DNA of 11,372 nucleotides, taken from NCBI GenBank assembly GCA_950072105.1, contig CATMOE010000088.1, positions 1-11,372 of the forward strand, given 5' to 3'. The DNA comes from an uncultured Dehalococcoidia bacterium. GTDB taxonomy: Bacteria > Chloroflexota > Dehalococcoidia > Lucifugimonadales > UBA3495. The notes under the pieces are model-generated. The model saw nothing but the letters and a program-made list of their open reading frames with translations. It was not told where the DNA came from and ran no database searches. Positions 1 to 10,827 of this stretch are shown here, piece after piece. A program made the position numbers and the translations under genes. How positions within the stretch are numbered: position 1 is the stretch's first letter; each line of letters opens with the position of its first letter.

Positions 1-75
1 AAAGCCAAAAAGGAAAAACAGACAACTGCACAACATACTCTAAAGGAAAAACGTAAATTGAAAAAAGAGAAGTAG
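1..75 (+). CDS. 3' end of a small lysine-rich basic protein (partial, runs off the window start)
   Basis: Frame 1 reads KAKKEKQTTAQHTLKEKRKLKKEK* (TAG 73-75). It resembles the widespread ~30-aa basic hypothetical peptides with a 'TLKEKRxxKKEK' tail (recognised from memory). Not in the ORF track. Confidence 0.5.
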   Translation, partial: KAKKEKQTTAQHTLKEKRKLKKEK

Positions 76-345
76 ATATAGGGCGCTTTCACTACGCGGA
101 CGAAGGAACGAGTCTGTTCGCTCAGCTTCTCAGCGGCCCTGGCCCTGTAGACATCTAACTGAGATGGAGTTGCTCCTCTCCCGCTCCCCCTTCTCGGGTT
201 TTTACCCCCCACCAATGTGTCCCATTATCGCTGAACGCCTACAGCGATACACTAGCTCGGCGTTGGCTAATTTCCATGGCCCGTATCTTCCTCAAATCTT
301 CCGGACCAAATCCAAGTCCTTTTGGTGCCCCCAATTCTGCGCCTG

Positions 346-1470
346 TGTTGTAGGTCTACAATTTTGTCAGTAGCTAACTGGTCAGGGAAAATGTCAGTTC
401 ATGGAAGGACTGACAATGATTACCAAAGAGCAGAACCGTTTACATATCTTGAATGGAGTGCTAGAGCGATACTGGACGATGAAGGAGGCGGCGCCGTCGC
501 TGGGGGTGAGTGAACGTCAGGGTTGGCGACTGCTAGCGGCCTATCAAAGGGAAGGGGCCAGAGGACTGGTGCATCAGAACCGGGGCCGGGTGCCGCCCAA
601 TGCCACTCCAGGGGATATTCGGCAACAAGTGGTGGCCCTGGCCCAGCAACGATATAGCGGCATCAACCATACTCACCTGACCGAGTTGTTGGCCGAGCGG
701 GAGGGAGTAATGTTGCCCCGCCCCACCGTGAGGAGGCTCTTGATCAGGGGCGGGTTGACCAGCCCACGCCAGCGCCGGCCGCCGCGGCACCGGTGCAGAA
801 GGCAACGGATGCCCCAGGAAGGGATGCTGCTCCAACTGGATGGGAGCCACCATCTATGGTTGGAGGACCGGTGGCCCTGGCTGACTTTGCTGCTGGCAGT
901 GGACGACGCTACCGGGAAGGCGCCCCATGCCCTATTCCAGGAACAGGAGGACACCCGAGGCTATTTGTCCCTGCTCCAGGGCATCATCGAACGTCTTGGT
1001 GTGCCGATGGCAGTGTACACCGATAGGCATGCCGTCTTTCAGTCCCGGCGTAGTCCATCGGACCGATCCCCAGTTCGCCAGAAAGGGCCTTCAACCCAAT
1101 GGGGCCGGGATCTGGGAGAGCTGGGGATCACCCAGATATTGGCCCACAGCCCCGAGGCCAAAGGGCGGGTGGAGAGGGCCAATGGAACTTTCCAAGACCG
1201 GTTGGTGGCGGAACTGCGGCTGGCTGATGCCTGCACATTAGAAAAGGCGAATCAGGTGCTGGCCGAGTTTCTGCCACGGTTCAACCAGCGCTTCGGGGTG
1301 CCCGCCGACCAGCCGGAATTAGCCTACCGGCCGGTGGACCCGGAGTTGGACCTGGGCGGCGTGCTTTGCATCAAGGAGTTGCGCCGAGTGGCTAAGGACA
1401 ATACGGTGCAATACCACGGTAGGACCTTGCAACTCTATCCTGGGACGAAGCGACCCCAGCTATGGGCGGG
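346..1470 (+). mobile_element. ISNCY/IS1202-type insertion sequence, left end intact, right part missing
   Basis: Begins TGTTGTAG at 346, followed by repeated GTCAG motifs (TTTTGTCAG, CTGGTCAG, AAATGTCAG) just before the transposase ATG, as expected for the multi-repeat TGT ends of this group. No matching right end (…TGACA…CTACAACA) was seen downstream. Confidence 0.7.
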
Positions 1471-1495
1471 AACGACTTTGGGAGATTCATCATAG
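401..1495 (+). pseudogene. ISNCY/IS1202-type DDE transposase (HTH + integrase core), C-terminally frameshifted and truncated
   Basis: N-terminal HTH (EAAPSLGVSERQGWRLL…GLVHQNRGR); DDE triad LQLDGS / VYTDRH / KGRVERAN, plus AVDDATG. After LYPGTKRP the frame appears shifted: removing one C from CGACCCCAGCTAT gives the family-like RPSY, and resemblance ends near 1470. Alternative start at 416 with GAAGGA as RBS. Confidence 0.8.
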
Positions 1496-1503
1496 AGTGG
1501 ACT

Positions 1504-1633
1504 TCGTGCCGTGGCGGCTATGCAACACCATTCTAGCAGACAGGGTTTACAACGCCGCCCCGGGCCAGGTCGTCCTCCAGTGGTTCCATCAGGCCAGGGG
1601 TACTGGTGGGGTGGAGGGGGTGCTAACGACAGC
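1504..1633 (+). repeat. Dispersed G-rich repeat, copy 1 (subfamily A; core 1582-1633 plus an upstream block shared with copy 2)
   Basis: Core GGTTCCATCAGGCCAGGGGTACTGGTGGGGTGGAGGGGGTGCTAACGACAGC. 1582-1619 is identical to 6750-6787 (38/38). 1504-1557 matches 5423-5476 at 46/54. Confidence 0.95.
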
Positions 1634-1646
1634 AACCCCAGCGGAC

Positions 1647-1948
1647 ATGGGAATCTACAACAAACCGGAGATCGTCTTGGCGGAAACACCGGGCACTCGA
1701 CAGTACAACCAGCGTGTGGTGGCCGACCAGGGCTGGACGTGGACTTTGTGGCGGTTTGTGACGCCGTCCTGGGTGCATGGAGTGGCAGCGGGGAGACCGT
1801 CACAGAAATAGCTGAAAGGTTCGGCGTCAGCAGGGGATGGATCTGGAAGTGGGTTTACCCGGCCCTGGGCTATGAAAGATCTAGACCCTGTGGCACCAAC
1901 GCCGGTGAGTCATCAGCGAGGGGTCGTCGATCAGACAAGGCGTTTTAG
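1647..1948 (+). pseudogene. Small resolvase/invertase-type helix-turn-helix DNA-binding protein, probably frameshifted
   Basis: From 1718: GGRPGLDVDFVAVCDAVLGAWSGSGETVTEIAERFGVSRGWIWKWVYP, a GRP arm plus HTH like the Hin/resolvase C-terminal domain. The annotated 1511 start runs through the non-coding repeat. The ATG at 1647 joins this frame if one GT of GTGTG (1714-1718) is removed. Confidence 0.5.
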
Positions 1949-1979
1949 TGCACCTGTAGGATAGGTGGGAGCCCCGGGC

Positions 1980-2957
1980 CTAATCCCGGAAGCTGTACTC
2001 CTCTCTCCACTCTAGATAGGCGTTTAGGCCCGCTGCCAGGTCATGTTCCGCGGTAAATCCTATGTCATCCCGCAGCCGTGAGACATCCATCCGGGACCTG
2101 GAGCCGCCGTATGAGATGTCATTGGCGTCCCCTGGAGAAGCCTCCACCACCTGCATGCCGGGCCGCAGCTCCTGCAAGGCATCTAGTATGTCCCCTACGC
2201 TTAGCCACCGTCCGGCGGAGATGTTGTAGGCGAAGTGGGAGGGGTTGGCTGCGTCCAACACGCTACAGATCCCGCTGGCTATGTCGGCCACGTAGGTGAA
2301 GTCGCGGCCCAGGGTGCGGTCACTCACGGCTATGGACTCACCGCGAACAACCCTTCCAGTAAGGTCCTTCACAACCGACTGGTTGGCCCGGTGGCCGGTT
2401 ACCCGCTCCATGGGACCGTAGGGTGAGCTAAGCCTGGTGGCGACGGTGGGGAAGCCGTGCATCTCACCGAACCGGCGGGTCAGCAGCTCGCTAACGTACT
2501 TGGTCGATTCATAAAGGGTGTGAGGATGAAGATCGGCGTCCTCCCGGAGCACCTCCTCCTGGTCGGGACGGTCACCGTAGACCGAACCGGAGCTGACGTA
2601 GAGGAAGCGTTGGGGGATTATCCGCCGGGCCAACTCCAACAGGTTAGTGGTGCCCATAACATTGATGTCCACAATGGATCGGCTACGGCTGGCTTCCACA
2701 TCAGGCAGGACCCCGGTAAACACGGCGGCGTGCACAATCTTGTCGATGTCATGGTCCTCGGCCTGCTCCAGGTCGCCAGGGGCCAGGATGTCCCCCTGTA
2801 GGAAGGTGACCTTGTCGGCCCAGGGTTGGATATACCGGGTGAGCAGCTCGTTGGGGGGCACCAGGTCGAAGCAGACGACCCGGTGTCCCAGCTGAGCCAG
2901 GGTCCTTACTATGTTGCTGCCGACAAATCCCGTACCACCGGTAACCAGAGTGGCCAT
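1980..2957 (-). CDS. NAD-dependent epimerase/dehydratase family protein (extended SDR)
   Basis: LVTGGTGFVG Rossmann motif, IVHAA, YVSSGSVYG, catalytic YESTK, RDFTYVAD. GGAGG RBS 8 nt upstream of the ATG. Confidence 0.93.
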   Translation of the reverse strand: MATLVTGGTGFVGSNIVRTLAQLGHRVVCFDLVPPNELLTRYIQPWADKVTFLQGDILAPGDLEQAEDHDIDKIVHAAVFTGVLPDVEASRSRSIVDINVMGTTNLLELARRIIPQRFLYVSSGSVYGDRPDQEEVLREDADLHPHTLYESTKYVSELLTRRFGEMHGFPTVATRLSSPYGPMERVTGHRANQSVVKDLTGRVVRGESIAVSDRTLGRDFTYVADIASGICSVLDAANPSHFAYNISAGRWLSVGDILDALQELRPGMQVVEASPGDANDISYGGSRSRMDVSRLRDDIGFTAEHDLAAGLNAYLEWREEYSFRD

Positions 2958-3082
2958 GGTGTCACCCTCCTCTGTTGTTGGACGTCCTCAAGGTGCCTCC
3001 GCTGAATCAGAAACAGGCGCACTCCACCGGATAGATGCCTTAGAGGCTCCCAGCCCATTCTTCCAGCGGATCAAACCTTTTC

Positions 3083-3934
3083 CTATGCGATCAGCGCGTC
3101 GGCCATTCGCTCCAGTTGCTCACCCATCTCGGCTTCGGTCTCGCAGTGCGAGGCCCACACCGAGACCCGTTCCGCACCGGCGTTCAGGAAAGCTTCTATC
3201 TGGTCTCGATCCGTCTCCGGCGGTTGACCGAATACCGATATGGTCAATGACGCCGGGTCCCGGCCCCTCTCCACAGCCAGGGTGTCGAGGATCTTCCGGC
3301 CCTCTTCGACTTGGGCCGGACTAACCCTCGTTGGAAGCCACCCGTCACCCCACCGGGCTACCCTCTGAAGAACGTTGGGAGCATTGCCACCGAGCAGGAC
3401 CGGTGGGTGAGGCTTCTGCACTGGCTTGGGATAGCAATAGACCGGAGGGAAATCGTAATACCGGCCATGGAACTCAGCTTCATCTTTGGTCCACAGCTCC
3501 TTCATTGCCAGGACCGCCTCACGGGTCTGGGCCCACCGGTGGTCGAAATCGCCCCCCATGATGGTAGTCTCCTCCCGGTTCCAACCAGCTCCGATGCCGA
3601 ACAGAAATCTGCCGCCGCTGTAGTGGTCCAGTGCCGCTATCTCCTTGGCGAGGATCAGCGGGTTCCGCTCGGGGACCAGGGTAATGCCGGTGGCCAGTAT
3701 GATTCTGTCGGTGACGGCGGACGCCCTGGCCAAGGCGATGTAGGGATCGGTCAGGTGCCTGTAGGTCTCCGGGATATCACCCCCAGTTGCAGGAAACCCA
3801 GTGTCACTGTGAACCGGCAGGATAGGGTGTTCGTGATACCAGATAGACTCGAATCCCAATCCCTCGGCTTTCTGGGCGATGAACGCGGCATCGACGGTGT
3901 ACGCGGGCAGGGGGGCTACAATACCAACGGCCAT
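3083..3934 (-). CDS. LLM-class (luciferase-like) flavin/F420-dependent oxidoreductase, Rv2161c-like
   Basis: AEGLGFESIWYHEH, DPYIALA, RNPLILAKEIAALDHYSGGRFLFGIGAGWNREE, PKPVQKPHPPVLLGG, GDGWLP. Start moved to ATG 3934 (MAVGIV) because AAGGAGG lies 7 nt upstream. F420 use is inferred from family resemblance. Confidence 0.92.
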   Translation of the reverse strand: MAVGIVAPLPAYTVDAAFIAQKAEGLGFESIWYHEHPILPVHSDTGFPATGGDIPETYRHLTDPYIALARASAVTDRIILATGITLVPERNPLILAKEIAALDHYSGGRFLFGIGAGWNREETTIMGGDFDHRWAQTREAVLAMKELWTKDEAEFHGRYYDFPPVYCYPKPVQKPHPPVLLGGNAPNVLQRVARWGDGWLPTRVSPAQVEEGRKILDTLAVERGRDPASLTISVFGQPPETDRDQIEAFLNAGAERVSVWASHCETEAEMGEQLERMADALIA

Positions 3935-4111
3935 ACCATTTCCTCCTTGACTCTTATTGTATTCCGTGGGCCTGCGGGCACCCAAGGTGGTCTTGGGCTG
4001 GGGATTGCCTACGGGCCTCCCCTTGGAGCGATGAGGCTCCCTCTCGTCTACTAAAGCTGCCGTGGCGGTATTGGAACGTACTAAGCCAGTCGGCCCATGG
4101 AACGGAGCCGA

Positions 4112-5263
4112 CTACCGTAGCCCCCGGAAGAAATCCCGGATGTCCTCAACCAACCTGGTCGGCTCCTCCAGGGCAGCGAAATGCCCGCCGCTGGGCATTT
4201 CAGTCCAACGGCGCACGTCGTAGGAGCGTTCCGCCCACTCCCTGGGAGGCTTTGCAATTTCCTGAGGGAATAGGGCTATGCCTGCCGGAGCCTTGACCCG
4301 TTCTTCTGGTCCCATGCCCCAGGTGTGCGTCTGGTTTTCGAGGTACATCCTGGTTGATGAACTTATCGTCTGGGTGACCCAGTAGATGGTTATGGTGGTC
4401 AACAACTCGTCCTTACTGAACCGGCTTTCTACATCACCGTGACAGTCGCTCCAGGTGCGGTATTTTTCCACGATCCAGGCTGCGAGTCCCGCCGGAGAGT
4501 CGTTTAGACCATAGGCCAGTGTCTGTGGTTTGGTACCCTGGATGTGGGCATACCCACCTTCATCTCGCTGCCATTTCTCCCGTTGGGCTGAATGCGCCGC
4601 TTCGGCCTTATTAAGGGGTCTGGATCCTGGGCCCAGGTAAGGCGTCGGGCGGGTTATGGACGTGAGATGGATGCCGGTCAACTTGTCGGGATGAGCGAAA
4701 CCCAACCGGGACGTTACACCCGCTCCGATATCCCCTCCCACGGCAGCAAACCGCGGGTAGTCGAGGTTTTCTGTCATCAGCTTTGCCCACATGTCGGCCA
4801 CTTTCAGCACCTGCATGCCTCGCTGCGTAGGGTGGTCCGAAAATCCAAACCCGGGCAAAGACGGAGCAACCACATCGAAAGAGTCTTCTTGATCTCCGCC
4901 GTGGCTGGCGGGATCACTCAGCATGGGTATGACCTTATACATCTCGAAGAATGTGCCAGGCCATCCGTGGGTGATCACCAGAGGCATGGGGTTTGGGCCC
5001 ATGCCCTTCTCGTGGATAAAATGGATTCCCATTCCGTCTACATCGGTCTTGAAATGGGAGAAGGAATTGATCAGCCTCTCCTGGGACCGCCAGTCGAACC
5101 TGGTGCGCCAGTATTCCACCAATTCCTTGAGGTAGTCCAGGTTGGTCCCGTAGTCCCAGTTGGAGCCGGGGATTTCATCGGGCCACCGGGTACGATCCAG
5201 CCTTTCCTTCAAGTCCTGCAAGGTGGCGTCTGGCACTTCTACCTTGAAAGGCGTAACGGCCAT
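4112..5263 (-). CDS. Epoxide hydrolase (microsomal/EHN type, alpha/beta fold)
   Basis: N-terminal EHN segment (LKERLDRTRWP…YWRTRFDWR), HGWP oxyanion motif, nucleophile GGDIGA, GYAHIQGTKPQT, GGHFAALE. AGGAGG is 8 nt upstream of ATG 5263 but only 2 nt from 5269. Confidence 0.95.
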   Translation of the reverse strand: MAVTPFKVEVPDATLQDLKERLDRTRWPDEIPGSNWDYGTNLDYLKELVEYWRTRFDWRSQERLINSFSHFKTDVDGMGIHFIHEKGMGPNPMPLVITHGWPGTFFEMYKVIPMLSDPASHGGDQEDSFDVVAPSLPGFGFSDHPTQRGMQVLKVADMWAKLMTENLDYPRFAAVGGDIGAGVTSRLGFAHPDKLTGIHLTSITRPTPYLGPGSRPLNKAEAAHSAQREKWQRDEGGYAHIQGTKPQTLAYGLNDSPAGLAAWIVEKYRTWSDCHGDVESRFSKDELLTTITIYWVTQTISSSTRMYLENQTHTWGMGPEERVKAPAGIALFPQEIAKPPREWAERSYDVRRWTEMPSGGHFAALEEPTRLVEDIRDFFRGLR

Positions 5264-5422
5264 TATCATGTCCTCCTATAACAACATAGAGACTAGGGTG
5301 ATCCACCGTGCGATCCAATCGTCGATTAATCTAAAGAATCGGAGAGGCTGCTGGCGAATAGCTTTCGAGCTCGATTTGGTGCGGCAGCGTCTGTGGTAGA
5401 CGCCGCGTTGAGGTTGTGCATG

Positions 5423-5546
5423 TCGTGCCGTGGTGGCTATGTAGTGCCATTCTAGCAGACCTGGTTGACAACGCCGTTCTGCGGTAGGGGTAACCCTGGT
5501 GGTTCCATCAGGCCGGGGGTACTGGTGGGGTAGGGGGGGTGCTAGC
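5423..5546 (+). repeat. Dispersed G-rich repeat, copy 2 (subfamily A; core 5501-5546 plus upstream block)
   Basis: Colinear with copy 1 at a constant offset of 3919: 46/54 identity (5423-5476), a divergent 22 nt, then 43/46 (5499-5544). Confidence 0.95.
5449..5457 (-). promoter_or_regulatory. Putative extended -10 promoter (TGCTAGAAT) facing the epoxide hydrolase cluster
   Basis: Minus strand reads TG-C-TAGAAT, inside the 14-mer CCATTCTAGCAGAC that is invariant between repeat copies 1 and 2. It lies about 185 nt upstream of ATG 5263. Confidence 0.4.
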
Positions 5547-5724
5547 TAAATAATCCTCCTGCCATCAGCTAGATTCAGCTGCTAACCTGGTCCCACCGCA
5601 CCGTCACTACCTCCCCGTTGTCCAGCACGACATGGTAACCTGGCGCGTATTGACCTAGGTCGTCATGATGCGCTGGAACACCGCGATGTGGACCACGCAG
5701 ACCCGGCGATCAAGCTGAAGCATT

Positions 5725-5730
5725 TATAAT
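5725..5730 (+). promoter_or_regulatory. Putative -10 box for a leaderless transcript of the protease gene
   Basis: Perfect TATAAT ending 6 nt before ATG 5737, with no Shine-Dalgarno in between. Confidence 0.45.
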
Positions 5731-5736
5731 GGTACG

Positions 5737-6669
5737 ATGTGGCTTCACTCTGGATGTAGAGCGGTTGCGGTGGTTTTCGTGTCCGCTGTTGTTATCAGTT
5801 GCAGCCCGTCGGAACAAGATGTACGCCGGGTATCGGAAGAAACGGTCGCAACCGCCATCGCCTCGATACCTAGGCCAACATCAGCTCCGACTGTAACCCC
5901 ACAACCGACTCCGACGCCGATTGAATTGCCGCCGACGGTTACTCCGGCGTTGACACCGACTCCACAGCCAAGCGCAACCCCGGTAATTTTTGCCCCTGAC
6001 GCGAGTCCTCAGCCAACAGCAACACCACAGCCGACCCCTACTCCACAACCTACGTTGCGACCGTACCCAAACTTCAATAAAGTCTATCTTTCTGCGTGGC
6101 CGTCAGTATTCCGTGTCGACACAAGAGAGGGAAGCGGTTCAGGATGGCTTGTCTCACCAGGCCATATATTGACTAATCATCATGTCGTTGAAGGCGGCGA
6201 TTCGGTCACTGTCAGACAGGCCGATTCTCCAAGCTTTCCTGCCGTCGTAGCCGCAGTCGATTTAGATAGAGATATTGCGCTCCTAAGATTCGATGAGCCT
6301 GCCGAGATATTGGATCCGCGTGCGAAGCCATTGCAGTTAGGAACAATCACTAGCGACGACGTGGCAAAACCACTCTTGATATTAGGATACGATGGCGCTC
6401 TCGCCCTGACGGTAAATGGAGCGGCAGGTAAAGCCAATGCTCATGTTGGCGTATTGTCCTTAGTATTGGACCTAAGAGTTATTGGGCGAGGTGTGCATCT
6501 AGTTATTGACGCAACGGTAGACCCAGGAGACAGTGGAGGGCCTGTGCTGAACTCTGACGGCCAAGTGATCGGCATGACACGCTCGGTTGACGAGGGTACA
6601 TTGTTCGCCATTCCTGTGGATGAAATACACGATTCCTTGTCAGCGTTAACGCGGGGTGAGGGCCGATAA
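5737..6669 (+). CDS. Trypsin-like (S1) serine protease with lipoprotein-like signal and Pro/Thr-rich linker, no PDZ domain
   Basis: Hydrophobic N-terminus ending [16 protein letters not shown] / [14 protein letters not shown] linker; GSGSGW, TNHHV (His), DRDIALL (Asp), PGDSGGP (Ser). Confidence 0.9.
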
Positions 6670-6749
6670 AAGGTGAATGTAGAAAACCAGGTCCCTAAAA
6701 GTCGTCTACGGTACGCTGACATCTGGCCTATCCACCGCGCTAACTGAAC

Positions 6750-6810
6750 GGTTCCATCAGGCCAGGGGTACTGGTGGGGTGGAGGGGAGGCGGCGACAAC
6801 CCAGGCTTTT
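6750..6810 (+). repeat. Dispersed G-rich repeat, copy 3 (subfamily A)
   Basis: 6750-6787 is identical to 1582-1619. The tail GCGACAACCCAGGCTTTT resembles the copy 4 tail GCGACAGCCTAGGCTTTT. Confidence 0.95.
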
Positions 6811-6831
6811 AAGGATCTCAGGCATGAAAGA

Positions 6832-6861
6832 TTGACAAGATTCGTCTGAACATGCTAAGAT
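6832..6861 (+). promoter_or_regulatory. Putative sigma70 promoter
   Basis: TTGACA (6832-6837), 18-nt spacer, then TAAGAT (6856-6861) preceded by TG-C (extended -10). Confidence 0.6.
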
Positions 6862-6865
6862 AGCG

Positions 6866-6902
6866 GAGCGTTCTCACAAACTAGTGAAGGCGCTCTTTTT
6901 TT
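6866..6902 (+). terminator. Terminator-like hairpin 1
   Basis: GAGCGTTCTCAC-AAACTA-GTGAAGGCGCTC (12-position stem with two G-U pairs and one mismatch) followed by T7. Confidence 0.55.
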
Positions 6903-6923
6903 GCCCAACGCCACCGACAGCAG

Positions 6924-6949
6924 AAGCCCCCTAAAGCGAGGGGGCTTTT
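6924..6949 (+). terminator. Terminator-like hairpin 2
   Basis: AAGCCCCCT-AAAGCG-AGGGGGCTT, a perfect 9-bp inverted repeat that runs into TTTT. Confidence 0.55.
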
Positions 6950-7126
6950 CTAGTTTTGAGAAACCCCACCATTGGGACCGCATGGGGTGGTGTACGATTG
7001 GCTATAATTGGGTGTCAACAACATTTACGCCGTTTGCGGCAGGGTCGGCGCGTCCCTAGAATTGGGGCGAGAATCCCAGCCCAGATTTGCTCAACCGGGC
7101 GACAACTATTTGTGAGGGTTTGAGAG

Positions 7127-7996
7127 ATGCTAGTCGAATTGGTCAGTCTGTTAAATGATGACGGCCTCCGCTTGGACGGCGCGTTTTATGCGCCCACCGG
7201 GGATGGGGATCGGGCCGGGCCGGTGGATGCGGTGCTGTTGATACACGGTTCCAGGGGGAACTTCTATGACGGCGCGACCAAGTCGATGGCCCAGGACCTT
7301 AGCGCCCAGGGTTACGCCTGTTTGCCGCTGAACACCAACGCCCATGACACCGCCTGGTACAACCCAGGTGGCCAGAACTTTAAAGGCAACGCCTTCGAGG
7401 TGTTGGCCCACACCTGCATCGACCTTCGGGCAGGCATCGATCACTTGACCGAAAGAGGTTACCGGAGGATCGGCCTTCTGGGTCATAGCATGGGCGCAGT
7501 GCGGGTCGCTTACTACGCCGCCACCCAGGACGACGGCCGGGTGGCCACCGTCGTGCCGGTCTCACCGGTGCGTCTGTCCTACTCCTATTTCATGGAGTCC
7601 GAGGACTCGGAGGAGTTTGCCGCCAATATCGAAATCGCGCGCCGGCTGATTGCCGAGGGCGACCCGGAAGGCGTATTTAGAGTCGAGCACCCCATCCCCC
7701 AATTGTTCAGCGCCGCTTCCTTTCTGGATAAACACGGGCCCGAGGAGAAATACAATCTGATTAACCACGCCCACGGAATCCGGGTGCCGATGCTGACCTT
7801 GAACGGGTCTCGGGAGACCCATAGCCGGCTGCGGGACATGGCTCAGGACCTAGCGGCGGCAGCTGTCAATAGCCCGAAGGCCGAGACCCTGATGGTGGAG
7901 GAAGGAGAGCATTCCCTGGTGAACCGGACCACAGAAGCTTCGGATGCCGTGCTTAAGTGGCTGGCTGCGCTCACGCCCGAAAAGGCCCGGGTCTAG
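7127..7996 (+). CDS. Alpha/beta fold hydrolase
   Basis: LLIHGSRG oxyanion region, nucleophile elbow GHSMG, C-terminal EGEH (His). A TATAAT lies at 7003-7008 upstream. Confidence 0.88.
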   Translation: MLVELVSLLNDDGLRLDGAFYAPTGDGDRAGPVDAVLLIHGSRGNFYDGATKSMAQDLSAQGYACLPLNTNAHDTAWYNPGGQNFKGNAFEVLAHTCIDLRAGIDHLTERGYRRIGLLGHSMGAVRVAYYAATQDDGRVATVVPVSPVRLSYSYFMESEDSEEFAANIEIARRLIAEGDPEGVFRVEHPIPQLFSAASFLDKHGPEEKYNLINHAHGIRVPMLTLNGSRETHSRLRDMAQDLAAAAVNSPKAETLMVEEGEHSLVNRTTEASDAVLKWLAALTPEKARV

Positions 7997-8105
7997 CCCC
8001 TCTGGCCCGGGTGCTGTCGGTAAACGCCTTCATCTACCATAGCTTGCTGCCTCAGGAAATGAAGGCGAGGGGCCAGCTGGAGTTCCCCGTTTAAGAGGAG
8101 GAGAC

Positions 8106-8903
8106 GTGGCATCGAATGAGAGCAGAGAGCAGAATGCTGCCCAGTTTTTATTCCAGGCGCATGATGCCCGAGAGCCTTATCATCCGATTCCGGAGCAATT
8201 CGCTCCCAGAACCATCACGGAAGCCTATGCCATGCAGGATGCCTATCATGAGTTGATAACCAGCAGCCGGGGACCCATCGTCGGCTACAAAGTTGCTCTG
8301 ACCACACCGGTTATGCAGCGAATGGTCGGATTCAATGAGCCCTGCGCAGGCGCAGTCTTTGCCAACGGTGTCCACCAATCGCCCGCGTCCATTAGAGGTG
8401 CCGCCTATGTCCACCTGGGTGCGGAGTGCGAGGTTGCGGTGCTCTTAAACCGGGACATGCCAGCCGAATCGGCTCCTTATGACCGTGCCAGTGCAGGCGA
8501 GGCAGTGGGGGCCTTGATGCCAGCTTTCGAGTTGGTGGATGATAGGGGCGCAGATTATTCGGACCTGTTTTTCTTAGGGGTTGTGGCTGACAACACCTGG
8601 AATGCGGGCGTGGTGCTGGGGCCCCAGGTCACTGCCTGGCGCAATATCGACCTCGCAGCAACTCGTGGTGCAATGATCATCAACGGCCAGCGGGCAGGTG
8701 AAGGGAAAGGTGGTGATGTGATGGGACATCCCTTGGAGGCGCTGGCATGGCTGGCCAACACGCTGGCGGCCCGGGGAAAGAGCCTGTCACAGGGAATGAT
8801 CGTGATGACCGGCAGCATCGTCAGCACCAAATTCCTTAATACCGGTGATACCGCTACCGTTTCGATTGATGGCTTGGGAGAAGCCAGGCTGACAGTGACG
8901 TAG
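8106..8903 (+). CDS. 2-keto-4-pentenoate hydratase-like protein (fumarylacetoacetate hydrolase family, MhpD/HpcG-like)
   Basis: EAYAMQ, GYKVALT, AECEVA, PAFELVDDR, VADN, VMGHPLEALAWLAN, IVMTGS. GTG start with a GAGGAGG RBS. Confidence 0.9.
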   Translation: MASNESREQNAAQFLFQAHDAREPYHPIPEQFAPRTITEAYAMQDAYHELITSSRGPIVGYKVALTTPVMQRMVGFNEPCAGAVFANGVHQSPASIRGAAYVHLGAECEVAVLLNRDMPAESAPYDRASAGEAVGALMPAFELVDDRGADYSDLFFLGVVADNTWNAGVVLGPQVTAWRNIDLAATRGAMIINGQRAGEGKGGDVMGHPLEALAWLANTLAARGKSLSQGMIVMTGSIVSTKFLNTGDTATVSIDGLGEARLTVT

Positions 8904-8973
8904 CCGCTACACAATCAGCATCGCGCCCCCACCGAATATGGACCCGGTTCCACCGCGCTGTAACACCAATCCA

Positions 8974-9038
8974 TGGGTCCCATACCAGGTGGGTGTACTG
9001 GTCGGGTAGTGGGGGTGCTAGCGACAGCCTAGGCTTTT
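8974..9038 (+). repeat. Dispersed G-rich repeat, copy 4 (subfamily B)
   Basis: TGGGTCCCATACCAGGTGGGTGTACTGGTCGGGTAGTGGGGGTGCTAGCGACAGC (8974-9028) is 48/55 identical to 10624-10678 and shares GTACTGGT…GGGGGTGCTA.CGACAGC with copy 1. Confidence 0.92.
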
Positions 9039-9234
9039 TGCCCGGCGGCATAGATGACAGAACCCGCCACATTTGATGGGCCCCTTCTTTTGCGCCGCAT
9101 CCTGGGCCTTGAAGGGCAAATGGATTTGCTCCTTTTTGCCGGAAGTAGTAAAAAGGTATGCAAGGTCATGCCCGTCCACGTTGTCCCCGACGACCTGATT
9201 TCACGATTCACCATGCCGAAGGAGTCCTTCTCGA

Positions 9235-10554
9235 TTGAACTCGGTCCGGTGGCGTAACAAGCTGGCTGACTCCCTGCCCTTCTATTACGGGTGGGCGATC
9301 TTCGCCAGCACGGTGTCGGTCAGTTTGTCCTCCCGTACCATCATGGCGGTGGCCACCCTCTCGGTGTTCGTCGTCCCGATGACCGAGGACCTGGGTTGGA
9401 GCAGAGGATTATTCTCCGGCGCAATCAGCCTGGGCGGCCTTTGTGCCGTGTTTATCTCCCCCCTGGTGGGCAAGTGGGTGGACCGGTACGGGTCTGGATT
9501 GTTGCTCTCCGTGTCGTCTGCTCTGACCGGTCTTCTGGCCGTCGGACTGGCTTTAGTGGGCAACCCGGCAGCCTTCTACGCTTTATACGTCCCGGGACGG
9601 CTGCTTTTCTCGGGTCCTTTGGAGCTGGGCATCCAAACGACGATAAGCAACTGGTTCATCCGCCGGCGCCCCTTGGGACTGGCCGCCGACACCGTTGCCA
9701 AGGGCGCAGGACTAACCATGGTGCCTTTGCTAGCTCAGTTCATTATCACAGGCTCGGATTGGCGTACAGCATGGTTTACGTTGGGGATATTGGCCTTTGC
9801 ATTGGGGGTCGTTCCTCCGGTTCTGTTCATGGCCAGGCGCCCCGAAGACATGGGGCTGGAACCGGATCCGATTCCCCAAGACCAGTTGGGATCTGAACCT
9901 ATCACTTCGGGAAGTGAGTCAGGGTCAAAGACCGCTGGCATAGAGTCTGCCTTTACTGTGGGTCAGGCGTTCCGGACCCGGGCGTTCTGGTTGCTTGCGG
10001 CGTTCAGTATGGCGGGATACATGGTGCAGGGGGGGACAAGTCTCCACCAAGTCGCCCACTACATCGACCAGGGTTTGTCCGGACCCTCGGCGGCTCTGAC
10101 CGCCAGCGCCTTCGCCTTCTCTCAGATATTGAGCGGCATTTTTTTGGCGGTGTTGGGGAGGAGAGTCCCCGTAAGATTTCTGTTGTCGGCGGCAGCCTTC
10201 GTCATGGCGATGGCGGTCTTCGGTAGTTCGATGAGCACATCTCTGCCTCCAGCGCTGATTTCGGCTGCCACTATTGGATTCGGGGCGGGCGCCTTGCATC
10301 TGTTGCTAAGGCTTGCCTGGGCCGACTACTACGGGAGAGAGCATCTGGGGACGATACGGGGTTTCACCATGTCAGCCCAGATCGGGGGCCAGGCTGCGGG
10401 CCTGGTGGTTGCCGGGTTCTTGTTCGATGCCACCGGGTCCTATCAATTGCCCATCATGGTGTTTACCGGCTCAGCGGCGTTGGCCGGGTTGTTGGCTTTG
10501 TTCGCCACCCCACCCAGACTCCGGGTTCCGCAAGCGCATCCTGCTTCGGGCTGA
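9235..10554 (+). CDS. MFS transporter (OFA/MCT-like)
   Basis: About 12 hydrophobic segments, FYYGW N-terminus, motif A-like GKWVDRYG, NWFIRRR, ADYYGREHLGTIRG, GFLFDATGSY. TTG start with AAGGAG upstream; the start is uncertain. Confidence 0.92.
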   Translation: MNSVRWRNKLADSLPFYYGWAIFASTVSVSLSSRTIMAVATLSVFVVPMTEDLGWSRGLFSGAISLGGLCAVFISPLVGKWVDRYGSGLLLSVSSALTGLLAVGLALVGNPAAFYALYVPGRLLFSGPLELGIQTTISNWFIRRRPLGLAADTVAKGAGLTMVPLLAQFIITGSDWRTAWFTLGILAFALGVVPPVLFMARRPEDMGLEPDPIPQDQLGSEPITSGSESGSKTAGIESAFTVGQAFRTRAFWLLAAFSMAGYMVQGGTSLHQVAHYIDQGLSGPSAALTASAFAFSQILSGIFLAVLGRRVPVRFLLSAAAFVMAMAVFGSSMSTSLPPALISAATIGFGAGALHLLLRLAWADYYGREHLGTIRGFTMSAQIGGQAAGLVVAGFLFDATGSYQLPIMVFTGSAALAGLLALFATPPRLRVPQAHPASG

Positions 10555-10623
10555 CGCCCCGTACTCAGAAAGTTCAACTGGCCAGCAGCTCCTTCAGGCC
10601 GCCGCCGATTGGGGGGTACCCCG

Positions 10624-10678
10624 TGGGTCCCATACCGGGCGGGGGTACTGGTTGGGCAGTGGGGGCGTTAGCGACAGC
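10624..10678 (+). repeat. Dispersed G-rich repeat, copy 5 (subfamily B)
   Basis: TGGGTCCCATACCGGGCGGGGGTACTGGTTGGGCAGTGGGGGCGTTAGCGACAGC. It is preceded by GGGGTACCCC, similar to GGGGTAACCC before copy 2. Confidence 0.92.
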
Positions 10679-10827
10679 ATCCGTTAGAATCCGCATCCAG
10701 TTGCTATCAAGGTATTTCGGTTAATGCGAGCTAGATGCTTGTAACTTTCCGTATAGATTGCTATGTAACGGTGTTGCGAATTAGATCAATTAGGCACACT
10801 TTCAGATTGGTGAAAATAATGATTCGC

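Follow-up and report, generated by a model that had tools for sequence, protein, structure and literature searches.

Tycheposons are integrated at tRNA genes by a tyrosine (sometimes a large serine) recombinase and carry xis, a primase/helicase module and cargo; their integration and replication modules swap, and the islands that hold them are remodelled (Hackl et al., bioRxiv 10.1101/2020.12.28.424599). PICMI satellites are about 6 kb long and consist of int, an AlpA-type regulator, a primase and few cargo genes (PMC10803314). In the additive flexible genomic islands of Alteromonas (PMC4898812) and the ssrA islands of Dehalococcoides (PMC3146451), as these reports outline them, cargo accretes in tandem at tRNA or tmRNA genes, cis-mobilisable derivatives occur, integration modules and cargo have discordant histories, and the cassette boundaries are direct repeats of the tRNA or ssrA gene. 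We have analysed a stretch of 11,372 nucleotides (the window) from an uncultured Dehalococcoidia bacterium that, taken with related loci, is like these islands in the first three respects, but its cargo blocks are parted by an internal segment of an integrative element, and exchange occurs inside that segment. The best explanation of the locus, and in our view a probable one, is a decayed additive island of tRNA-targeting elements in which copies of the segment act as exchange points.

The segment, a repeat that we call R, was recognised from the sequence GTACTGGT, which occurs exactly five times in the window, always on the plus strand, with starts at 1600, 5519, 6768, 8995 and 10645; shuffling the window 200 times gave a mean of 0.24 occurrences and a maximum of 2. 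A preliminary description had listed five co-oriented, intergenic copies at spacings of 3919, 1249, 2227 and 1650 bp, and all of this agrees with our counts, each copy lying between annotated genes. The gene content that it gave for the four intervals is also correct, and its two subfamilies reappear in alignments as type A (copies 1-3) and type B (copies 4-5). Two of its points need amendment. The element of ~55 bp is real, but R is about 60 bp long and starts ~12 bp further left, at the GGGGTACC motif; and the internal spacer of the two-gene unit is free of R, as stated, but a degenerate type-2 match (Table 1) places an additional copy within the interval after copy 3. Identity between pairs of the five copies ranges from 38/54 to 46/53 over the core; copies 1 and 3 have an identical 38-bp block in common, and copies 1 and 2 have 122 bp in common at 79.5%. 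A profile built from the five copies found a single further strong copy in the 4.08-Mb assembly (G000), at C18:35-84, and this sixth copy is the start of a contig that represents another route through the array. A broader type-2 profile found 7 copies on 6 contigs of G000, the window counted.

Table 1. Features of the window, in order of position
Feature	Position	Strand	Remarks
ISNCY-family transposase relic, cut-down	303..1495	+	ORF 401-1495, 364 aa; NF033594, 378 bits
'A-long' left flank	1452..1581	.	non-coding in window
R copy 1	1572..1633	+	type A, left motif degenerate
Small GRP-HTH gene relic, frameshifted	1647..1900	+	HTH_23 match, tblastn
Module 1 cargo: NAD-dependent epimerase, F420-dependent LLM oxidoreductase, epoxide hydrolase	1980..5269	-	
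R copy 2	5487..5546	+	type A
Module 2 cargo: trypsin-like serine protease, Pro/Thr-rich linker	5737..6669	+	
R copy 3	6750..6800	+	type A, without left part
Second repeated unit, S	6808..6949	+	promoter match, two hairpins
Degenerate type-2 R copy	6959..6997	+	31.7 bits, E 5e-7; absent from the preliminary description
Module 3 cargo: alpha/beta hydrolase and 2-keto-4-pentenoate-hydratase-like gene	7127..8903	+	
R copy 4	8971..9028	+	type B
Module 4 cargo: MFS transporter	9235..10554	+	
R copy 5	10611..10678	+	type B, left motif complete
Putative attachment-arm relic	10699..10802	+	presumed arm

Intact relatives, which come from the sister genus g7, show R as an internal part of a 5.7-kb tRNA-integrated element with the order integrase, xis, primase-helicase, R, a 78-aa HTH gene, cargo and attR. 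In locus L052 the left part comprises a tRNA-Leu 3' piece, a tyrosine integrase, a 264-aa ORF, xis and Prim-Pol/AAA_25, and the right part R (4296-4355), the 78-aa HTH gene, CDF cargo and a second tRNA-Leu piece; the order is the same in L033/L071, at tRNA-Lys. A site-specific integrase at a tRNA gene with a duplicated tRNA piece is found in these relatives and not in the window, and the xis/AlpA-type gene (HTH_17/phrog_66) is followed by the primase-helicase module (Prim-Pol and AAA_25) and then by cargo (CDF). The tRNA sites are tRNA-Leu for L052/L066, tRNA-Lys for L033/L071 and tRNA-Pro pieces for L094. The att sites of L052 are the tRNA fragments at the element's ends, apart from R, so that the earlier proposal of R as an attachment site does not hold: in intact elements R is internal.

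Among 64 metagenome loci, the HTH gene starts directly behind the R match in 36. In 9 loci R follows the Prim-Pol gene, lying ~50 nt past its stop codon and behind a replicase-specific inverted repeat; in L102 and L122 it follows a different primase-helicase with no tblastn match to Prim-Pol. A tRNA or tRNA fragment of at least 40 nt is present in 16 of the 64, against 3.2 expected, the loci not being independent. The predicted location near a tRNA or integrase gene is thereby seen at related loci, as is clustering in one orientation rather than scatter in both, with R confined to a single strand in 25 of 27 multi-copy metagenome loci. Integrase-less derivatives keep att and R and are stacked at tRNA genes: in L071 three tRNA-Ser 5' fragments come after the intact head element, and a co-oriented full or partial type-2 R copy lies behind each of them. 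In the two genomes of the window's own genus type, g1 (G000 and G002), searches found neither an intact 78-aa HTH gene nor the Prim-Pol gene. Viral contigs gave no match to the R pattern and no relative of the HTH protein, and 44 neighbouring ORFs included no terS, capsid or HNH gene. A Synergistaceae match (L032, 14.4 bits) and the metagenome loci L084 and L089 were dropped as chance.

The parents of the window would then be a family of small tRNA-targeting integrative elements of tycheposon/PICMI-like build, belonging to one marine Dehalococcoidia family, with R as the conserved first segment of a right arm made up of R, the small HTH gene, a 70-bp tail and cargo. The likeness to tycheposons lies in gene build, module swapping and island remodelling; tycheposons occur in Prochlorococcus and other marine groups, and the account of them consulted here describes no conserved internal site between cargo blocks (10.1101/2020.12.28.424599). 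The parent element resembles PICMI in size, gene set and absence of identifiable packaging genes, but PICMI are satellites of Vibrionaceae with a known helper phage, and the parts of that report on which we draw mention no R/HTH module (PMC10803314). The window would represent an additive island of some age. Its att fragments, its integrases and most of its HTH genes would have decayed, and R would be what is left between blocks of cargo. Co-oriented copies of R would recombine with one another at variable positions, through short-homology recombination or unequal exchange, incoming DNA included, and such exchanges would delete, duplicate and swap modules.

Two relics in the window are in line with this anatomy, one behind copy 1 and one behind copy 5. 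The first is the HTH relic, which directly follows R in the slot of the 78-aa gene of intact elements; no significant match joins it to the 78-aa protein, and position and motif (GRP..DVD) suggest homology. It belongs to a divergent subtype with further examples in L068, L108, L119, C129 and C77. The second is the putative attachment arm, which is found again on C97, next to the 5' half of a tRNA-Val, and on C129, next to the 3' half of a reversed tRNA (Arg, read by eye); in the window the tRNA core beside it has decayed. ARAGORN found no tRNA in the window, and neither an integrase nor a tRNA piece is present in it or in the 2.9 kb upstream. Because the window has no tRNA piece, its tRNA location is deduced from the related array in G002/L094, which lies beside tRNA-Pro pieces. 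The A-long flank of copy 1 is shared with the flank of copy 2 (5423-5500) and with G002:C119, and BLAST over 401 genomes of the order gave, outside G000, short weak matches alone, taken as chance. To its left is the transposase relic, which we take to be IS1202-like and whose intact 514-aa paralog lies on contig C125; homology to C125 stops at 1462, and an 8-nt microhomology near 1453-1460 joins the relic to the next segment. R was also considered as a target of IS1202-type transposition and rejected, since the microhomology at which the relic is fused lies some 120 bp upstream of copy 1 and allows no target relation to be read.

On the island explanation, the original job of R may have been to act in cis as a mobilisation signal, for the start of replication or for packaging, a reading to which we give slightly less than an even chance. 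Such a role would explain the retention of R in derivatives. The adjacent HTH protein would read R through its GGTGGGGTA-type repeats, of which two are direct, with a spacing of 11 bp, and a third is inverted. The HTH gene is under purifying selection (dN/dS 0.18 over 22 sequences); Foldseek with a model of the protein returned no row at E 0.001 or better, and the ESM Atlas unnamed clusters alone. The SaPI ori, too, has short repeated motifs, some of them opposed, just downstream of a primase-helicase gene, but its 6-12 iterons surround an AT-rich centre and it is specific to its Rep (PMC9371898). R lies downstream of the replicase, but a SaPI-type ori is disfavoured, since R is G-rich throughout, has no AT-rich centre and is common to unlike replicases; it travels, moreover, with the HTH gene. 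R could also serve the HTH gene as promoter/operator or as a structured 5' leader; it would then have been kept for regulating the cargo downstream, with recombination incidental. It ends about 12 nt ahead of the HTH start codon, type-2 copies sit after the promoter-terminator unit S, and most single sequences fold as a hairpin, with a consensus stem of 6 pairs in 21 type-2 copies. We nevertheless regard the leader as rather unlikely: none of the window's R copies has a sigma-70 match, genes behind g1 copies point in either direction, covariation in the type-2 stem is weak and limited to 1 of the 6 pairs, and the 42-copy R alignment contains no compensatory pairs, observed and shuffled values being equal.

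Exchange of modules, predicted to have its breakpoints inside the repeat, is visible in population contigs, where modules 1-2 are missing from one arrangement and modules 3-4 are replaced in another. Contig L078 joins window positions 1-1617 to 6750-9153 and lacks module 1, L087 joins window 1-6787 to C18, and the left flank of copy 3 is connected to the gluconokinase-like path of C18 in both L087 and C18. Additional joins at R occur in L104, L100, L093 and G002:C213, and a joint from 1614 to 5541 in run X12 bypasses module 1. The MFS module also lies between two copies of R in G002:C213 and L100, where its outer flanks are different, and the module 2 protease heads a different array in L093. 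Read depth of the protease module was ~2x that of module 1 in 4 of 4 runs; depth not being equal to copy number, we do not count this in favour of exchange. In all, 36 unique genus-g1-type R copies represent 25 combinations of 16 left with 16 right flanks. The evidence consists entirely of short-read contigs, and with 38 identical bp in copies 1 and 3 the alternative junctions might be assembly artefacts at short repeats. This is most improbable: the junction copies of L078 and L087 have alleles of their own, the join of copy 3 to C18 was found in two assemblies, most joins pair flanks that are never both present in the window, and a second species has its own arrangements.

The exchanges follow no one position within R. 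Columns 53-66 track neither flank (mismatch 0.35 and 0.31, with reference values of 0.30 for unrelated pairs and 0.06 for same-flank pairs), and the polymorphisms of R do not fit a single fixed crossover position. The suggestion that R is a recombination site is right in that modules swap inside it; R is not att, and one fixed crossover is not supported. Point mutation or gene conversion might blur a crossover signal too.

At the left edge of R, 17 of 30 left-flank clusters (chosen for carrying the left motif) show a drop in conservation from 1.5-2 bits to about 0.1 bit over no more than 3 nt, and the homology of the GMC module to an R-free locus stops exactly at this edge, with 5-6 nt of microhomology. 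Such sharpness against unrelated flanks is not readily explained by passive decay and hints at active cutting. R might then be where an undescribed cassette-capture system cuts or primes: a nuclease or recombinase encoded by the element or a helper, guided by the HTH protein, would cut the left edge and release DNA that starts precisely at R; the agent could be the element's own proteins or a helper phage terminase redirected by the HTH protein. The R-led DNA would be joined to distant ends, at arbitrary chromosomal points, and the resulting circles of R and cargo would insert at other, existing R copies. The prevailing co-orientation of R fits such a system, module 1 lies between two diverged copies of the long flank and R, as circle insertion would leave it, and the top Foldseek rows of the HTH model are a small terminase, at a non-significant E of about 1.1. 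We consider it unlikely all the same, given the variable crossovers and the scatter of right junctions over many positions, one of them within an M28 peptidase gene. None of five genomes has an IntI above the cut-off (TIGR02249, 265 bits; best 81.6 bits), in assemblies that are 91-95% complete and with 0 of 14 control genomes over the cut-off, so that the search has no positive control. The Y1 transposase (PF01797) is present in one of the five and in neither g1 genome, and a Y2 transposase search, which gave no match in genomes or in controls, does not bear on the question. The HTH protein has no catalytic fusion among its longer homologues, the long matches being HTH-repeat proteins, and it was rejected as a resolvase tail. 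The excised-circle joints expected by the preliminary description were not among the joints listed for contigs of four runs, a weak negative, since rare forms are lost from contigs.

Integron attC sites have conserved inverse core and core sites and a folded single strand, and integron cassettes are mostly single, co-oriented, promoterless ORFs. In REP/RAYT systems, palindromes are numerous, lie dispersed in both orientations and are accompanied by a Y1 transposase. The window is like integron arrays, and like pdif arrays as far as these are described (PMC10132070), in that its modules are parted by one kind of short site and are rearranged between strains. It differs from integrons, as had been proposed, in having no attC structure: inspection of alignment A1 by eye revealed no attC cores, and a single-strand hairpin for types 1/A/B was rejected, there being no covariation. 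The modules, moreover, contain 1-3 genes on either strand rather than single co-oriented ORFs. In a pdif site, a 6-bp spacer separates two inverted sites of 11 bp each, and the sites that bound a module are inversely oriented (PMC10132070); a pdif/XerCD site was rejected, R being about 60 bp long, asymmetric and co-oriented, without the 11-6-11 bp structure and not in inverted pairs. A piece of tRNA or ssrA was rejected as well: ARAGORN and Rfam (no matches to E 1) found nothing on the window, the genome's tRNA genes have no match to it of at least 14 nt, and the att sites of L052 lie elsewhere. R as a coding remnant was dismissed on the shifting of reading frames among copies, and REP/RAYT on a count of 6 type-A/B and 7 type-2 copies in G000 and on the distribution of PF01797, which neither G000 nor G002 has. 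That R, or R with the HTH gene and tail (about 370 bp), is a small MITE/REP-like unit inserting at new sites is very unlikely. The larger unit is sharp-ended on both sides, a protein search found 234 HTH homologues, and type-2 copies are spread over 6 contigs of G000; but no terminal inverted repeats or target duplications were seen by eye, the copies are clustered and co-oriented, and the HTH gene is under selection. No empty site with both flanks joined was found among the sequences compared, in which R-free homologues matched one flank.

SAR202-type Dehalococcoidia have large, variable sets of oxidative enzymes. A literature search on integrative elements of these bacteria found no report, and the movement of the enzyme sets is little described; the small tRNA-targeting elements provide a concrete vehicle, and R a concrete point where catabolic blocks are acquired, lost and exchanged in wild populations. 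R can also be used as a marker for flexible islands in fragmented assemblies. If the sharp left edge does reflect enzymatic cutting, it would represent a new route to cassette arrays, and if DNA is captured in this way, SAR202 would assemble its catabolic arrays and rearrange them with no integron integrase.

Unit S contains a match to a sigma-70-type promoter, with its -35 at 6832 and an extended -10 that ends at 6861, followed by a GC hairpin with a T-run and a second terminator-like hairpin, and from these features it is a candidate multi-copy small RNA gene. Rfam searches of four related loci gave sub-threshold terminator-like rows alone. A weak remnant of S is also present behind R copy 4 (9035-9082, E 0.018).

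The five co-oriented copies of R that the preliminary description had reported were all recovered at the stated positions on the plus strand: GTACTGGT occurs five times in the window, against a mean of 0.24 and a maximum of 2 in shuffled sequences. The window is the complete contig C88 (11,372 bp) of an assembly of 4.08 Mb in 164 contigs, and the proposed search of the whole genome with a profile of the five copies gave a single further strong copy, at the start of contig C18, whose first 73 bases match part of the window at 97%. The exact pattern was present in two of 60 related genomes, six times in the window's own genome (G000) and twice in G002, and the reversed control gave zero. Co-oriented copies in G002 lie in the last 4.4 kb of its contig C4, with two more in C119 and two in C213. 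The motif-bearing named relatives are Dehalococcoidia MAGs, and the sequencing runs that contain the window stretch are mostly marine. A putative SAR202 affiliation would agree with the genes for F420-type LLM enzymes.

The consensus of R consists of a left GGGGTACC motif and a nearly invariant CCAT, followed by GGGGTAC/GGGGTAG repeats 11 bp apart, and an inverted relation is present among the repeats. A test of covariation did not support folding in 42 copies and gave little support in 21 copies of the related type-2 form (one of six pairs). At its right edge R is ragged, and one copy abuts mid-gene sequence of an M28 peptidase. On the left the edge is sharp: conservation falls to about 0.1 bit three bases left of the motif (in 17 of 30 left clusters, those keeping the motif), and the match of a GMC module to an R-free locus on C132 ends exactly there. 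Active cutting at this edge is a live alternative to passive exchange, albeit an unlikely one.

The setting of R was defined by a motif scan of the genome collection, which yielded four stretches, and a metagenome scan, which yielded 68 loci; removal of the window's own two contigs and two chance matches left 64 for analysis. At the related locus L033, a tRNA-Lys is followed by a tyrosine integrase, a 264-aa ORF, a xis-type gene and a Prim-Pol/AAA_25 gene, with the R motif about 50 nt behind. A homologue in genome G525 led to a complete 5.7-kb element, with the order tRNA-Leu piece, integrase, 264-aa ORF, xis, primase-helicase, R, 78-aa HTH gene, CDF-type cargo and second tRNA-Leu piece; its integrase is apparently broken, and the CDF-type label was given by eye. 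Because the tRNA-Leu pieces lie at the ends of this element and R inside it, R is an internal segment and the tRNA fragments are the att sites, contrary to the proposal that R is itself an attachment site.

Other loci share this anatomy in part. The HTH start lies directly behind the first R match in 36 of the 64 metagenome loci, and a tRNA or fragment of at least 40 nt occurs in 16, versus 3.2 expected from length-matched G000 windows, the loci not being independent (five are one tRNA-Leu locus). R is preceded by a Prim-Pol gene in nine loci, by a primase-helicase of another kind in L102 and L122, and by truncated ends of replicases in L056 and the serine-integrase element L120. Some loci are derivatives that keep att plus R; in these, a tRNA-Leu or tRNA-Thr precedes R at about 100-250 nt, and the intervening sequence contains no integrase. 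Stacking is seen at L071, where an intact element at tRNA-Lys is followed by three tRNA-Ser 5' fragments, each leading into a full or partial co-oriented type-2 copy and cargo. The island modules at L071, L070, L073 and L124 have 5' halves of tRNA-Ser or tRNA-Thr at their boundaries, where 3' pieces would be usual.

The HTH gene, with a dN/dS of 0.18 across 22 sequences, is a real gene that encodes a stand-alone three-helix protein. It occurs in seven of 202 family genomes, six of them in g7, the sister genus of that of the window, and in one of 401 class genomes. No intact copy was found in G000 or G002, and a frameshifted relic of another subtype lies behind copy 1 in the window. Residues 5-9 of the HTH protein P0001 include a conserved QL-x-L stretch, which may resemble a sliding-clamp motif. 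In about 20 loci the HTH stop is followed by some 70 nt of conserved sequence, a tail that ends sharply on its right. A packaging role of R may be hinted at by a fold match to a small terminase (E 1.1, non-significant), and no packaging gene was found among 44 ORFs chosen out of 85 short representatives, themselves drawn from 230 neighbouring ORFs.

The expected clustering near an integrase or tRNA was borne out at related loci (L033, G525, L071, and L094, where a related array has tRNA-Pro fragments and an integrase piece at a distance of about 4 kb); the window itself contains no integrase, tRNA or tRNA fragment. Behind copy 5 lies an arm that elsewhere in G000 abuts tRNA halves, and its meeting with both kinds of half at the anticodon loop suggests an integrase that uses this loop in either orientation. 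On C18, 1.5 kb behind the R copy, there is a fragment of a serine recombinase. The integron-like reading of the layout failed; no IntI exceeded the cut-off in any of five genomes (a search run with no positive control); one of the five has a Y1 transposase. R arrays also fail the tests for REP and for pdif, the latter as outlined in the available part of PMC10132070.

Coordinates of features in the window and at related loci (contigs are of G000 unless stated)
Sequence	Positions	Feature
Window	192-349	Left end of ISNCY-family element, repeated at many G000 contig ends; the family is therefore abundant and breaks assembly
Window	6715-6787	Match to first 73 bases of C18
Window	6808-6949	Second repeated unit, S
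Window	10699-10802	Arm, also on C97 end, C129, C107 and C142; joins tRNA-Val 5' half (C97) and reversed tRNA 3' half (C129), both at anticodon loop
L078	window 1-1617 + 6750-9153	Joint, 99.8%
L087	window 1-6787 + C18	Joint
Run X12	window 1614 -> 5541	Joint, depth 3.6
C129	4012-5174	HTH relic and epimerase pair as in module 1, without R; epimerase 86% DNA identity
C23	17631-22111	29 tRNA genes, one strand (ARAGORN); serine recombinase gene about 15 kb away on same contig; may belong to mobile element
L009 (G002:C4)	8359-8444, 6139-6180, reverse strand	Two other dispersed intergenic repeat families, dozens of G000 matches, unrelated to R
L096	792-1151	120-aa HTH-like ORF behind R; small-terminase-type look by eye; neither Pfam nor PHROG match

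Modules are exchanged at R. The joint in L078 leaves modules 1 and 2 absent, and that in L087 replaces modules 3 and 4. Single window flanks are joined to other DNA in L104 and L100. In L093 the protease module comes before the CoxL-like and LLM modules of the G002 array, and in G002:C213 a copy of R stands on either side of the MFS module, with the flank that in the window follows copy 3 coming next. Three observations argue against misassembly of such junctions, which are known from short-read contigs with no long read among them: the alleles at the junctions, the evidence of a further assembly and that of another species. The X12 joint was found when the contigs of four DNA runs, X12 among them, were examined, of 19 containing the stretch; the suggested check for excised circles found no backward joint listed in these same contigs.

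Flank clustering over 100 copies gave 30 left and 21 right clusters. In the 36 unique copies without an HTH-type right flank, 16 different left flanks and 16 different right flanks are paired in 25 ways; seven of the left flanks occur with two or more right flanks, and three of the right flanks with two or more left ones. Columns 9-19 of the R alignment track the left flank and columns 67-77 the right, while columns 53-66 track neither (mismatch 0.35 and 0.31, the corresponding values being 0.30 in unrelated pairs and 0.06 in pairs that share the flank); the pairs are not independent, and gene conversion would give a like signal. Since this block tracks neither flank, exchanges fell on both sides of it. 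The predicted loss and swapping of modules at the repeat thus stands (L078, L087, X12, G002:C213), and a single fixed crossover does not.

The window is probably a decayed additive island whose R copies act as short-homology exchange points without a fixed crossover. As such an island decays, R copies would be left between modules, and these would recombine at variable positions. Within this model, the chances are a little short of even that R was formerly a mobilisation signal bound by the putative partner, the HTH protein. That R's original function was regulatory is somewhat unlikely; such a role is compatible with passive exchange, and the odds therefore overlap. The better ori candidate is a replicase-specific inverted repeat between the replicase stop codon and R, separate from R.

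The array is a real feature, combining the known process of tRNA-island accretion with an internal site so far undescribed, which persists when the remainder of the element is lost and marks the points of module exchange. Judged from the available parts of the cited papers, the parent element works like a cargo tycheposon (10.1101/2020.12.28.424599) or a PICMI (PMC10803314), and is a putative member of either class. Its stacking resembles that of additive islands (PMC4898812) and Dehalococcoides ssrA islands (PMC3146451), but boundaries there are att repeats and here an internal site. R occupies the position of the SaPI ori (PMC9371898), but is less fit as an ori of that type because it has no AT-rich centre and is common to unlike replicases. 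Neither R nor such elements in SAR202 were described in the titles and abstract starts covered, few of them from subscription papers.

The unit S comprises a conserved upstream motif, a sigma-70 promoter with an extended -10, a GC hairpin of about 45 nt with a T-run, and a second terminator. It has no Rfam family and is a candidate for an undescribed small RNA gene. Of 202 family genomes, 20 have matches, and 15 of these belong to g7; the unit is multi-copy, often alone and sometimes in tandem (L144, L170, L171).
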